From: Limisphaerales bacterium | GTDB lineage: Bacteria > Verrucomicrobiota > Verrucomicrobiia > Limisphaerales > JAYPXF01 | Direction of reading: 5' to 3' | Assembly: GCA_047608975.1 (NCBI GenBank) | Contig: JBLFYM010000006.1 | Location: 5,029-69,028 of the forward strand | DNA length: 64,000 bases | Shown: positions 23,422-50,930 of the stretch, in pieces | Position numbering within the stretch: the stretch's first letter is position 1 | How the letters are laid out: every line of letters starts with the position of its first letter | Program-made: the position numbers and the translations under genes | The notes under the pieces: generated by a model | The model's database searches: none | What the model was told of the DNA's origin: nothing | The model's input: the letters and a program-made list of their open reading frames with translations, nothing else

Positions 23422-23436
23422 ATGAAAATGGAGCCA
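23422..23436 (-). mobile_element. Putative att site: direct repeat of tRNA-Thr 3' end plus flank
   Basis: atgaaaatggagcca versus atgaaaaatggagcca at 51187-51202 (tRNA 3' end). Confidence 0.55.
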
Positions 23437-23471
23437 TCAGACATGGCGTAACCCCCTATCATTGGCGTTTT
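23431..23471 (+). repeat. 41-bp perfect inverted repeat, left copy
   Basis: gagccatcagacatggcgtaaccccctatcattggcgtttt is the exact reverse complement of 50890-50930. Confidence 0.95.
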
Positions 23472-23530
23472 CGGTGAAAAATCGCCCTTTTTCTCTGCGG
23501 TTCGAGAACTCTTTCCAACGGGAGGCGCAT

Positions 23531-23902
23531 CGTGACAGAGGGGTGTGTCACGTCTCGGTGTCGCAATAGTCAATGTTTGCAGTGTTTTTTCGCGGGTAGT
23601 CTGGAAGTTGTGACTCCGCTCAATTTGGGGCGTCACGCCATTCGCCGAGGGTAACTATGTTTAACTCCATGTTTAACTCGATGTGTGACGGGTGTGACGG
23701 CCCTTTGGGCGAAGCCCAACCCCCAGTGAGGACGGGCGCTTGGCCCAGAGCGGGGCGGTCTCTCTCTCTCCCTTTATCTCTTTCTTATCATTGAAATAGA
23801 AAAAGTAGTGTCACAGGTGTCATCAATTGTGTCCACGGATCTGGCGCTCTTGGAGCGACGACCCGCATGCCGGGTGGTGTGGGAGCCGGAGTTAACACTC
23901 CC
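23531..23902. repeat. Cluster of short direct and inverted repeats, ori/iteron-like
   Basis: cgtgaca-N8-tgtcacg, atgtttaactc x2 (12-bp period), gtgtgacgg x2 (9-bp period), CT/AT tract, gtgtcac/gtgtcat (9-bp period, inverted), ggagt-taac-actcc. Confidence 0.7.
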
Positions 23903-23954
23903 GGCGACCCGATTAGGCAGCCGGTAAAATCTCAAATCCATATCCGCTCCGTCA

Positions 23955-24539
23955 TCAGTGATCGTGTATGTGTCCAGACCGCCGTAACTCAAAGAAACAC
24001 CGAGCACAAGCCTCCAAGTCAGCTTCGGCGTCGTGTGCGCCATGATACTCCTGACCGAATAGGTGCTCGTGAAGCTCCTGCAAGGTCGGCCACTTGTATC
24101 CTGTGCCAGGCTGCTTGGGTATCCGGCAGAGATCGGTCGTGCTCTTCATGGTGCAGACTGCCGGTAAGCTGAGAAACGCTCCGAGACACCTCGAACGAAC
24201 AAGCTCGGCACCGACAACGCCTCGGTCGTATTCGAGGTTGTGGGCGACCAATGTGACGCGCCCGCGCTGTATCGCGGCTGTGAAACGAGTGAGCACTCGC
24301 TCGACATCTTCGCCCGCACTTACCGCCTGTGCATGAGTAATCCCGTGAATTCGTGACGCCTCCGCCGGAATCGTAAAACCACTCGGACGGACAATGAAAC
24401 TGTGGGGGTCGCACACGGAACGCGAGGAATCGTAAATCGCCCATCCGAGCTGAACTATTCTCGGCCACCCGTCAACATCCTGAACTGAAAGATTGCGACT
24501 GCGCGGCAAACCGGTCGTCTCACAATCAAAGAAAAGTAG
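23955..24539 (-). CDS. DEDDh 3'-5' exonuclease (DnaQ-like); no start codon upstream of the ExoI motif
   Basis: In-frame LLFFDCETTGLP upstream of the TTG at 24509; AHNLEYD; HDAEAD. Confidence 0.8.
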   Translation of the reverse strand, partial: LLFFDCETTGLPRSRNLSVQDVDGWPRIVQLGWAIYDSSRSVCDPHSFIVRPSGFTIPAEASRIHGITHAQAVSAGEDVERVLTRFTAAIQRGRVTLVAHNLEYDRGVVGAELVRSRCLGAFLSLPAVCTMKSTTDLCRIPKQPGTGYKWPTLQELHEHLFGQEYHGAHDAEADLEACARCFFELRRSGHIHDH

Positions 24540-24546
24540 TCCCTGA

Positions 24547-47537: not shown

Positions 47538-48886
47538 GAATCCTCCGTCACATCCTCCTGATCGCACTGATCGCCCTCCCCGCCAAGGCAATCGATCTCG
47601 ATTTGAGCCAGGTATTTCGAACTCCGGAATTCAAAGCCCGCTTCGCTGCCAGCTACGGATTCAACTCCTCCGTCGAACCGACCATCACGCAGGAAGAAAA
47701 GCAGCTCCTCGAAGAAGTCGCAGGCATCTTGGCGACGAACATGCCAGTAGCCAGTATCCGGCTGCTCAAAGCCACCACCGCCAATTCAAGCGCCGCCCTG
47801 GACTTCACCCTCGGCAACTTCCTCTTCCAACAGAACAAGCTGGAAGATGCAGCCGCTCAATACCGTATCGCATTGAAGAAGATGCCCGACTTCCTGCGAG
47901 CCCACAAAAACCTCGCACTCATCCAATTCCAACAAGCTGATTACAAGAATTCACTGGCCTCCCTCCTCAAGTCACTCGCTCTCGGCGAAGTCGACGAAAT
48001 GACCTATGGACTGATCGGGCATTGCCACTTCCGCCTCGGACACAATGCCTCCGCCGAATCCGCCTACCGCCGCGCTCTGATATTTGGTCCCAACAACGAA
48101 AATTGGAAACAAGGCCTCGCCAGCACCCTGATCGAACAACGCCGTTACGCCGAAGCGGCGACCTGGCTGGAGGAACTCCTTGTGCTCAAGCCCGATCGCC
48201 CCGACCTCTGGCTCGCCCAAGCCGACACCTATCTCGGTCGTGAAGATATCGATCGAGCTGCTGCCAACTATGAACTGCTCCGTCGCATGGGCAAAGCCAG
48301 CGCTGGCAGCCTCCTGAATCTGGGCGACATCTACGTCAACCAAGGCCTTCCAAAGACCGCCGTGGACACCTACGTTGAAGCCTTGTCCAACCCGCCGCTC
48401 CCCGACCTCCACCGTATGATCCGCGTCGCACGGGTCATTCTCGAGCAACAACACCCAAAAGCTTCCAGTCGCTTGGTCACGGCCTTGGAGCAATCCTATC
48501 CGTCCAAAACCGAAGATCTTCTACGTTTGAAATCTCGCATTGCCTTTAGCCAAGGAGATTCCACTGCCGCCACGGCCACGCTCGAATCCCTCCTCGAGCA
48601 AAACCCTACCGACGGCGAAACCCTGATCCTCTTGGGCGACCACTACGCCGTCCACGAAGAGAAAGAAAAACAAGAACGCGCTGCGCTCCTCTACGAACGC
48701 GCCTCCCGCATCGATGGCTTCGCCGCCCGCGCCATGGTAAAGCAAGCGATCATGCTCGTCCGCCGCAATCAGTTCGAGAAAGCAGTGCTGCTCCTGAAGA
48801 ACGCACAGGCGATCGATCCCAAGCCAAACGTCGCCGAGTACCTGGATCGACTCACGCGGGTCCTTGCCATATCCGACCAACCTTGA
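47534..48886 (+). CDS. Tetratricopeptide repeat protein (TtpD-like)
   Basis: Signal peptide MRILRHILLIAL, many TPR helices; ATGA overlap with tonB. Confidence 0.88.
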   Translation: MRILRHILLIALIALPAKAIDLDLSQVFRTPEFKARFAASYGFNSSVEPTITQEEKQLLEEVAGILATNMPVASIRLLKATTANSSAALDFTLGNFLFQQNKLEDAAAQYRIALKKMPDFLRAHKNLALIQFQQADYKNSLASLLKSLALGEVDEMTYGLIGHCHFRLGHNASAESAYRRALIFGPNNENWKQGLASTLIEQRRYAEAATWLEELLVLKPDRPDLWLAQADTYLGREDIDRAAANYELLRRMGKASAGSLLNLGDIYVNQGLPKTAVDTYVEALSNPPLPDLHRMIRVARVILEQQHPKASSRLVTALEQSYPSKTEDLLRLKSRIAFSQGDSTAATATLESLLEQNPTDGETLILLGDHYAVHEEKEKQERAALLYERASRIDGFAARAMVKQAIMLVRRNQFEKAVLLLKNAQAIDPKPNVAEYLDRLTRVLAISDQP

Positions 48887-49093
48887 GCGTCCGCACAGAA
48901 CCGAGGCACGGTTGATTTGGATCGCTGACACAGGCCCGGCCGCCGTAGGCCTACTCGGACTCCTCTTTGTCGTGGTCCATACCACCGGATTCCTCTGGAG
49001 ACGTCTGGGAAGCGGCGTCGCCCTTGATTGACCATCGTTCGCGTGGGTATCCAAATCCGTGCGTTTGAAAACTCATCATTCCACAGATTCAGT

Positions 49094-49927
49094 TCACCAC
49101 AGATTGGGATGACTAGCGGCACCCGCTTGCAAAATCCATTGTCGCCTCCGCTTGCCGCCCTTGGACTCAGTCCCTCGGTGCGTTTCTGAATCAATGACCT
49201 CAGTGGGGGATTGATTCAGAAACGCACCGGTGTTGTCGCCGGCGAACTCGACGAAGGGATGATCGAACCGACGACGCGCTTCCCGAATCTCCTCCATCAC
49301 GCGAGCTACGGGTTTCTGATTGAACCGACGGGTTATCATCAGACTTGCACCGCAGAACTCACATGCTCGCGGATAGCCTCTCGAAGTCTGAATCGTGATG
49401 CGGTTGTAGGAACGATTTGCCAACAAATCGAATCGCGGCCGCACATACTGATCCGGCTCAAAAACTCGATCCGTCGCGCCTTGGTATCTCGGAAGCAATC
49501 TACCGGCCGCGGCGTCACTCACGACCTGTGGCCAGATGCCTTCTGCGCCATTTATCACCACGGTGTCACAATGTTGCCGCGCTTCGTCCGGGAGCTGGGA
49601 AACGTGCAATCCTCCCATGACCACCTTTACCCCTGCCCTACGGTATTGATTGGCGACGCGATAAGCATCCTCAATTCGCGCCGTCAGCGAAGAGATCCCC
49701 ACCAGGTCGAACTGCGGCCAATCCGACACCTCCTCGAGACGATCCACTTCCAGATACTCGATCTCGTGTTCGCCCGGTGTGAGACCGCCAACCGTAAGGA
49801 GACCGAGGCTAGGCAGTGACGCTATCACTTCGCCCCGCCTGACGAATCCCGGCAGCGTGACACCCAGCTTCGCCAACTCCGGATCGAAAACCCGAACGCC
49901 ACTCATGGCAATCAGGCCGATCTTCAC
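49094..49927 (-). pseudogene. B12-binding radical SAM protein, truncated and mutated
   Basis: B12-binding N-terminal domain; TSRGYPRACEFC (first Cys of CxxxCxxC is Tyr); FAGDN, then unrelated sequence and early stop. Confidence 0.8.
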
Positions 49928-49945
49928 TCTACGAGTTCCTTCGTC

Positions 49946-50889
49946 CTACTCACTCGATTCCTTAATTCGATCAATCGTCTGCGTGACCGCTCGCCACGCA
50001 TTTCGAACTTGCAGCGTTGGCAACGAAGCTTTGTTTGTTCGCCCCTCCAATTCGGCGACATAAGATTGCAGTCCGGGAACAAAGGAATTGTTGGTCCGCA
50101 CCCATTCCCGCCCCTCGGGCAGTCGCGCCATCCCTTCGAATAGGAGTTTGAACCTTGGGGAGTTCTTTTGCCCAAGCCAACTGATCCGGTTGGCAATCCT
50201 CTGTATCCGATTTGACTCTGCCCCTTCCCGCCTCGGCTGAAAGTGCGTGGAAAACTCGTCCAACCGTTGCATGAAATGCGCACGCACCCACGCGGGATGC
50301 TCAGGACTGAGCTGATCGAAGAATCGAGGCAATTGTTCGAAGATTTCATGTTCGAACGGTTTTGGTGGAAGCTGACGCGCAGGCGCAAATTCATCGGGAG
50401 TGTGAATGGACAAGAACTCGATCGCCCCACAGTAGTCCTCCGCCTCAACGCGTCGATCGACTTCCGCATTAAGACGAACCTGTTGCTGCGGGTAGACCGC
50501 GACAGCGATCCAAAAGAGAGCGACGACCAGCAGCCAACGCCACCGAACGCGATCCTCGTTTCGCGGAGGCAGATCGGCGAGTTGACAGCGCATGTCGAAC
50601 TGGGAACTCAGCACCGCACTCGCCACAGCAAGAATCGGAAAACCCCACAAGGACACCATGAAGGCAGTACCCAACACGGAAAGGACCTCCTCCTCTTCCA
50701 GCGAATTCCGCATCCCACCCATCCCCGCGACGATCGCCTTCGCAAGCGTCCCTCCAAAGAACGTCACGGCCAAAACTTCACCCAAAGCCGCAGTTAGAAC
50801 CCAGAGCGAGGCAACCCAAACCGGCGTTTTACAGAGCACCTACAGAACGCGAATCATCAAGGCCACCCGCCAGAAGGAGACGATTCCCA
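49946..50889 (-). pseudogene. Membrane protein, 5'-truncated with in-frame TAG
   Basis: Frame reads ..FLGIVSFWRVALMIRVL-TAG(50842-50840)-VLCKTP.. and runs into the 41-bp repeat without a start. Confidence 0.6.
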
Positions 50890-50930
50890 AAAACGCCAAT
50901 GATAGGGGGTTACGCCATGTCTGATGGCTC
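50890..50930 (-). repeat. 41-bp perfect inverted repeat, right copy
   Basis: aaaacgccaatgatagggggttacgccatgtctgatggctc. Confidence 0.95.

Follow-up and report, generated by a model that had tools for sequence, protein, structure and literature searches.

A 41-bp inverted duplication around a 27-kb segment downstream of tRNA-Thr(CGT) in a Limisphaerales genome: a probable scar of illegitimate recombination

Introduction

Inverted duplications have been found at 59% of Drosophila inversions, and staggered breaks have been proposed as their cause; the shortest of these duplications measures 46 bp, and sometimes just one breakpoint is duplicated (Ranz et al. 2007, PMC1885836). This signature is well described for eukaryotic inversions and is rarely pointed out in bacteria. 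Here we analyze a perfect 41-bp inverted repeat that brackets 27.4 kb of DNA, including a zinc locus, in a stretch of 64,000 nt from the genome of a Limisphaerales bacterium (GenBank assembly GCA_047608975.1, contig JBLFYM010000006.1 [C6], positions 5029-69028; hereafter, the window). We read the two 41-mers, with a probability of about 0.62 judged from junction sequence, as a recent and probably non-functional inverted-duplication scar of illegitimate recombination in the variable region downstream of tRNA-Thr(CGT).

The locus resembles staggered-break inversions in that a short unique sequence is duplicated in inverted orientation at the segment ends, with native contiguity on one side of each copy and a size near 46 bp. 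It departs from the Drosophila staggered-break model with end joining in residing in a bacterium without detectable Ku and in having no outgroup with the uninverted order. A short inverted patch that comes from nearby DNA and starts at the 6-nt GAGCCA is also reminiscent of fork stalling and template switching (FoSTeS)/microhomology-mediated break-induced replication (MMBIR)-type events and of bacterial template switching. In such an event, the recipient end would be a tRNA 3' remnant and the template would be the break in a truncated gene, designated Y below; unlike typical template-switch events, however, template and patch lie 27 kb apart on the present map, and the second junction has no identifiable microhomology.

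Two other classes of systems share features with this locus. An intact tRNA at one end, a same-strand duplicate of its 3' end at the other and a variable tRNA neighbourhood are reminiscent of tRNA-associated islands, whereas the lack of an integrase, the native and co-diverged core cargo and the shortness of the att-like repeat (15/16 nt, one indel) are not. Inverted repeats also bracket the invertible segments of Hin/Gin-type, fim-type and shufflon systems, but these span 0.3-5 kb as opposed to 27 kb, and here there is no adjacent recombinase, the genome has no serine recombinase, and the repeat is unconserved and apparently made of gene debris.

A sharply bounded 41-mer present in two copies

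The features at the two ends of the bracketed segment are the following (window coordinates; ORF, open reading frame; SD, Shine-Dalgarno).

21613-23277, minus strand: sulfatase gene (PF00884), left outer neighbour; the SD-like AGGGGG and ATG of the repeat read toward it
23422-23436, minus strand: duplicate of the tRNA-Thr 3' end and trailer, TGGCTCCATTTTCAT, overlapping the left copy by GAGCCA
23431-23471: left 41-bp copy, an orphan with no homology to the right locus on either side
49094-49927, minus strand: 3'-truncated B12-binding radical SAM gene (rSAM; PF02310), the usual partner of Y
49946-50902, minus strand: 5'-truncated gene Y, of a membrane protein family, with an in-frame TAG at 50842-50840
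50890-50930: right 41-bp copy, on the truncation point of Y (minus strand, ..SHQTWRNPLSLAF/LGIVSFWRV...)
50931-51186: non-coding spacer of 256 nt between the right copy and the tRNA-end repeat
51187-51202, minus strand: 3' terminal 8 nt of tRNA-Thr, including CCA, plus 8 nt of trailer; direct-repeat partner of 23422-23436
51195-51270, minus strand: intact tRNA-Thr (CGT) (ARAGORN; RF00005, 69.3 bits)

The claim of an earlier note on this DNA that a perfect 41-bp inverted repeat occurs 27.4 kb apart is borne out: positions 23431-23471, which begin GGAGCCATCAGACATGGCGTAACCCCCTATCATTGGCGTTT..., are the exact reverse complement of 50890-50930, with 41/41 matches both in a direct read and in the core of a BLAST alignment. 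For a stretch of 64 kb, an inverted match this long would arise by chance with a probability of ~1e-15 (~4e9 position pairs / 4^41). A repeat search delimited arms of 49 nt at 23426-23474 and 50887-50935 (94% complementary, 27412 nt between them), and when 440 nt around each copy (±200 nt) were aligned locally, the alignment spanned ~55 columns and was disturbed by indels and mismatches toward either edge. Beyond the repeat edges, neither the outer flanks (p=0.12) nor the inner flanks (p=0.90) showed significant homology when compared to shuffles, and the sequences immediately outside the repeat differ (...GAAATGAAAAT on the left, AGTTTCCCC on the right). The repeat hence has sharp limits and measures 41 nt or perhaps slightly more.

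The source genome (G000) is a 277-contig draft of 6.38 Mb with 93% completeness. The 41-mer occurs in this assembly exactly twice, even allowing up to three mismatches, and BLAST searches with the repeat or with 100 nt of either flank identified no other contig sharing them. The 41-mer is also missing from 40 relatives, four of them congeneric species, and sub-patterns of 23 and 32 nt returned 0 matches in genome and metagenome collections, among which the source genome's own records are possibly not included. When the sulfatase was used as a query for further assemblies of the same species, none was found on record. With only two genomic copies and none in relatives or collections, the repeat is neither conserved nor the dispersed multi-copy element that the earlier note had allowed for.

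Since this is a draft metagenome-assembled genome of 277 contigs and 93% completeness, an assembly artefact has to be considered. We deem it very unlikely, given that a de Bruijn assembler cannot invent a second copy, that all four junctions need supporting k-mers, that both copies must exist if the 27.4-kb interior is contiguous, and that composition is uniform. An artefact could affect the orientation of the interior alone, and would do so only if the final k were ≤41.

Each copy continues into native sequence on one side

The right copy had been described as abutting a 5'-truncated membrane gene. Our analysis refines this description, in that the repeat overlaps the truncation point. The 297-aa ORF at 49946-50839 (minus strand) represents the distal two-thirds of Y, a protein of ~450 aa in relatives. 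Residues 176-461 of an intact homolog from the same genus (L021:2933-4471) align to window positions 50923-50087 through the TAG (tblastn, E 7e-43), and positions 135-449 of a 461-position profile built on eleven Y homologs align to the window with 305 bits. The TAG lies 20 codons in and stands where the closest homologs conserve Gln.

The first codon aligned to the profile is that of a Ser (50902-50900), which lies 13 nt into the right copy (posterior 0.5-0.9 for the first four residues), and the phmmer match to Y likewise begins at 50902. The PVERxLD..AA motif, well conserved in the family, is missing upstream of this start, and the first 134 positions of the Y profile were found nowhere in the assembly by tblastn or phmmer. 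Because the closest homolog is just 50% identical, the Y break can be placed only to the interval 50890-50905. The 256-nt spacer beyond the right copy showed no homology to Y or to anything else found, and a related-locus search with the Y fragment yielded no match. We also considered that an inversion had split a gene, leaving the missing half of Y or of rSAM at the other repeat copy, and rejected this candidate, as the missing half was not found anywhere in the genome.

The neighbouring rSAM gene is damaged as well, its homology to the genes of two relatives (G003 and G001) ending at ~49229, with ~200 C-terminal codons without counterpart. The fragments of both genes are still free of frameshifts, which, together with the perfect identity of the repeat, fits a recent event. 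For annotation purposes, the 297-aa and 277-aa ORFs beside the repeat should be regarded as gene fragments. Y and the B12-binding rSAM constitute a conserved gene pair, present in 14/151 genomes of the order (loci L021, L023-L031); Y is a multi-pass protein without a Pfam match, and one genome (G106) carries the pair as a fusion, whereas G043 has it in tandem duplicate.

On the left, the inner 13 nt of the copy match the Y-derived end of the right copy, with no Y sequence beyond them, and the inner neighbour is unrelated. On its outer side, the left copy is contiguous with the duplicate of the tRNA-Thr end. The left site reads ATGAAAATGGAGCCA/TCAGACATGG... on the plus strand, where the tRNA-Thr end reads ATGAAAAATGGAGCCA/GCGATCAGA. 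The 15-mer at 23422-23436 equals the 16-nt tRNA-end sequence minus one A, and lies on the same strand as the tRNA. Apart from the tRNA itself, nothing else in 6.4 Mb matches TGGCTCCATTTTTCAT with one indel, and 0 of 1500 random genomic segments aligned to the tRNA end with as high a score. This 15-nt duplicate corresponds to the att-like core, sharing GAGCCA, that the left copy had been said to overlap. GAGCCA is common to the tRNA end (TGGAGCCAgcg), the left site (TGGAGCCAtcag) and the right copy (cTGAGCCAtcag), such that the left site is tRNA-like through GAGCCA and repeat-like from GAGCCA on, with unrelated DNA following after 41 nt.

A derivation of the repeat from a decayed tRNA-Thr 3' half was examined and discarded as a general explanation: tRNA-likeness is significant only for the left copy with its outer flank, by virtue of the 15-mer, and does not reach significance for the right copy (p 0.13-0.41).

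Both copies also read outward as an SD-like AGGGGG-N7-ATG followed by TCT GAT GGC TC (AGGGGGTTACGCC-ATG-TCT-GAT-GGC-TC). In the left copy, this start opens a 57-aa ORF (23271-23444) whose stop overlaps a possible GTG start of the sulfatase (GTGA, 23274-23277). A shared regulatory leader, conserved for translation initiation or as an operator ahead of two genes that read outward, would account for the common AGGGGG, ATG and first four codons and for the GTGA overlap. We nonetheless consider this explanation highly improbable. The 57-aa ORF has no homolog among 200 genomes of the order, the ATG of the right copy opens merely a 26-codon ORF running into the tRNA trailer, the repeat shows no conservation in genomes of the same genus, and an Rfam search of the repeat regions and the left interior identified no family. 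The GTGA overlap is probably coincidental, and a true gene start (MSDGS...) within the repeat was rejected because the 57-aa ORF is an orphan.

A probable inverted-duplication scar in a variable tRNA-Thr neighbourhood

Native contiguity is thus one-sided for each copy, affecting the outer side on the left (6-nt overlap) and the inner side on the right (13-nt overlap), as would be anticipated if the rearrangement itself had generated an inverted duplication. Judged by these overlaps, the repeat is debris, its inner 13 nt deriving from a broken gene and its outer 6 nt from the tRNA-end duplicate. Of the two interpretations in the earlier note, a historic inversion or duplication scar fits these data, with one copy continuous with the broken gene and the other being a patch joined to the tRNA-end duplicate at a 6-nt microhomology; an invertible or transposable element is unsupported, for reasons given in the next section.

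The environment of tRNA-Thr(CGT) is consistent with a scar. In a genome of the same genus (G002), this tRNA lies 1.5 kb from the homologs of window 1-7900, in the same relative orientation, and therefore 43 kb came to lie between the tRNA and this block in the genome studied here. Synteny of this block (window 1-7967) with the DNA downstream of the G002 tRNA covers positions 11555-19489 of the G002 locus (L009, contig C59). The neighbours of tRNA-Thr differ across all five relatives examined, with still other neighbours in G003, G004 and G005. Because they vary in every relative examined, tRNA-Thr is a synteny breakpoint and rearrangement hotspot in the genus.

We propose that the DNA lying between the former tRNA trailer and the tRNA was rearranged, either all at once or in a few successive events. 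The observed junctions could have arisen by either of two mechanisms, which we regard as about equally likely. In the first, a break in which the two strands are cut 41 nt apart would be followed by inversion of the 27.4-kb segment; fill-in and end joining would then duplicate the 41 nt in inverted orientation at both ends, with the native neighbour retained on one side. In the second, a microhomology-primed template switch, a broken or nascent end (...TGGAGCCA) would anneal to GAGCCA at the Y break, and ~35 nt would be copied before joining to the left interior. That the two similarity tracts coincide exactly is in keeping with a template switch, as is the absence of a detectable Ku homolog from the genome, which favours microhomology-based or replication-based joining. 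Under either mechanism, the repeat would be a by-product and not a site.

Several points weigh against this interpretation. There is no outgroup with the segment in the opposite orientation or with an empty site having the same flanks, so that the event is read from junction anatomy alone; the lack of a collinear outgroup follows from the fact that genomes of the same genus carry the modules of the segment at other loci. Furthermore, homology to Y extends into the repeat for no more than 4-5 residues (posterior 0.5-0.9), just 6 nt are shared with the tRNA-like motif, and the two overlaps together cover all of the repeat but its middle ~22 nt. Lastly, the staggered-break model comes from Drosophila and not from bacteria (PMC1885836).

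The same tRNA-end repeats might instead be the relic of an att architecture, in which the 27.7 kb between them once integrated as a circle at tRNA-Thr and the integrase has since been lost. In such a circle, the crossover core would be flanked by the two 41-mers at a spacing of ~260 nt, and these would serve as protein-binding arms or represent a short-range inverted duplication. An intact tRNA-Thr at one end, a 15/16-nt copy of its 3' end on the same strand at the opposite end, the proximity of the tRNA to block 1-7900 in G002, and segment ends consisting of junk and mobile-element fragments are all in keeping with this scenario. We still hold it to be unlikely, since no integrase was found on the contig or in the surroundings of tRNA-Thr here or in any relative examined, and the central 23 kb are native, co-diverged and of uniform GC content, only the 2-kb ends being accessory or junk. 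Perfect arms of 41 bp are, moreover, atypical of att arm sites, and one of the arms overlaps the remains of a broken gene, which is unexpected for a binding site.

Taken as a rearrangement scar, the repeat pair offers a clean case from bacteria in which a short inverted duplication delimits a 27-kb segment that was rearranged, in a genome without detectable Ku, and the locus is a further example of a known rearrangement footprint.

Recombination machinery and the mobility of the segment

The earlier note had also proposed that the 41-mers are recombination sites making the zinc locus invertible or transposable as a very large non-autonomous element. A Pfam scan of the large ORFs at 17-52 kb identified no recombinase or transposase domains, and the contig as a whole holds no recombinase or transposase. 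The search for a recombinase elsewhere returned five tyrosine-recombinase-like matches (PF00589), all of them off the contig, and no serine recombinase (PF00239) in the genome. No direct target-site duplication flanks the repeats, whose flanks differ, and the tRNA-end direct repeat is offset with respect to them, overlapping the left copy by 6 nt and lying 256 nt beyond the right copy. These results, together with the absence of the repeat from relatives and the vertical inheritance of the bracketed genes, which occupy separate loci in genomes of the same genus, do not support the proposed element.

For an active invertible segment, in which the 41-mers would be crossover sites for RecA or for an unlinked recombinase acting in trans and the zinc locus would flip, the perfect inverted repeats do bracket a defined segment, and the five tyrosine-recombinase-like genes elsewhere in the genome could be invoked. 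The minimum usually quoted for RecA-dependent exchange in E. coli is ~25 bp, which the 41 bp of the repeat exceed. Against this stand the lack of any recombinase within 85 kb and of a serine invertase in the genome, the lack of conservation of the repeat even within the genus, and its apparent construction from gene debris. In addition, the contig is unbroken through both copies and there are no alternative junction contigs, which indirectly hints at one dominant orientation. We judge active inversion very improbable. Were it to occur, it would define a giant 27.4-kb invertible zinc-acquisition segment without a dedicated linked recombinase, in which DNA upstream of the sulfatase swaps with DNA downstream of tRNA-Thr. 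The left outer flank ends ...AATGAAAAT, and the flipped form would read AATGAAAAT-41mer-TGGGAATCG into the Y fragment.

General homologous recombination is a different matter, as 41 bp of perfect identity can serve it, making rare passive flipping of the segment possible. Such RecA-mediated flipping would be a corollary of the scar and not a function, and nothing suggests that it is used. The strand asymmetry of the region is uninformative on a recent inversion, because GC skew here shows no consistent relation to strand.

A very large non-autonomous transposon, mobilised in trans, would likewise present 41-bp perfect terminal inverted repeats. Yet both a transposase and a direct target-site duplication are absent, no further occurrence of the ends turned up in this genome or any other that was searched, and the cargo modules reside at separate loci without such ends in relatives, rendering this explanation extremely improbable.

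Content and ancestry of the bracketed segment

The interior of the segment comprises a conserved part and, on its left, a mosaic.

25939-48886: conserved 'cargo' (Pfam; homologs in the same genus at 72-86% aa identity)
23472-25938: left interior mosaic, not conserved beside the receptor gene in G001-G003
388 nt: non-coding stretch of the mosaic
23860-23918: 3' fragment of a group II intron
23955-24509, minus strand: DEDDh exonuclease gene
24547-25005, minus strand: HNH-like gene
25076-25165: 5' fragment of a group II intron
25607-25736: palindrome resembling repetitive extragenic palindromic (REP) sequences

The cargo encompasses a TonB-dependent receptor, a 617-aa gene and a membrane/SpeE-like fusion, a Zur-like regulator of the Fur family together with a CobW/COG0523 GTPase and an ABC transporter, and a DUF3450-ExbB-ExbB-ExbD-TonB-TPR cluster. 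Further genes encode two redoxins, MerC, ABC-2 and a PKD-repeat protein. By its domain content, with PSCyt/PSD, DUF1552 and sulfatases, the genome is of a Planctomycete type. In G002, the receptor module (window 25939-29900) and the TonB module (43056-48874) are on different contigs (C100 and C14, respectively), and in G001 the PKD gene, a 391-aa redoxin gene and the TonB cluster are contiguous and arranged differently. In every relative, synteny breaks off precisely where the receptor gene (25939) and the TPR gene (48874) end.

Amino acid identity to relatives is 72-86% for the cargo modules versus 62-91% for the flanking blocks, and GC content is 0.55-0.59 throughout. Because divergence is like that of the flanks, the modules are present in relatives and GC content is uniform, the central 23 kb are native and vertically inherited, and only the outer margins of the bracket (left, ~2.5 kb; right, 2 kb) are lineage-specific. 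The bracket around the zinc locus is therefore not evidence of a mobile or switchable unit; the zinc genes are native and were apparently just caught in a rearrangement at the tRNA-Thr hotspot.

Additional observations on the segment interior

The intron fragments of the left mosaic, 86-93% identical across genera, are the two ends of a group II intron-like element that is multi-copy and mostly lacks ORFs. At its 5' end, this element starts with GUGUG, and the stretch that follows matches RF02001 at 32.3 bits in one of its loci (L044); the 3' end carries a hairpin similar to intron domain V. Other copies of the element (G000:C134 ~13917-14592; L042-L047) present the 5' end, 119-918 nt and the 3' end, in that order. 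The order in the window is permuted, with the 3' fragment followed by 1158 nt bearing the HNH-like and exonuclease genes on the opposite strand, and then by the 5' fragment. The permuted fragments could correspond to two truncated copies or to a circularly permuted arrangement.

The palindrome at 25607-25736 has 25-nt arms that are 96% complementary, separated by an 80-nt loop. It is a dispersed sequence of the REP or miniature inverted-repeat transposable element (MITE) kind, with copies on at least 9 other contigs. Within the cargo, the 617-aa gene beside the TonB-dependent receptor (28034-29887), which has no Pfam match, is tandemly duplicated in G002 (C100, 3823-7414; L014), and the 1002-aa PKD-domain gene contains, at 33527-35490, four copies of a repeat with a 600-bp period and 68-75% identity.

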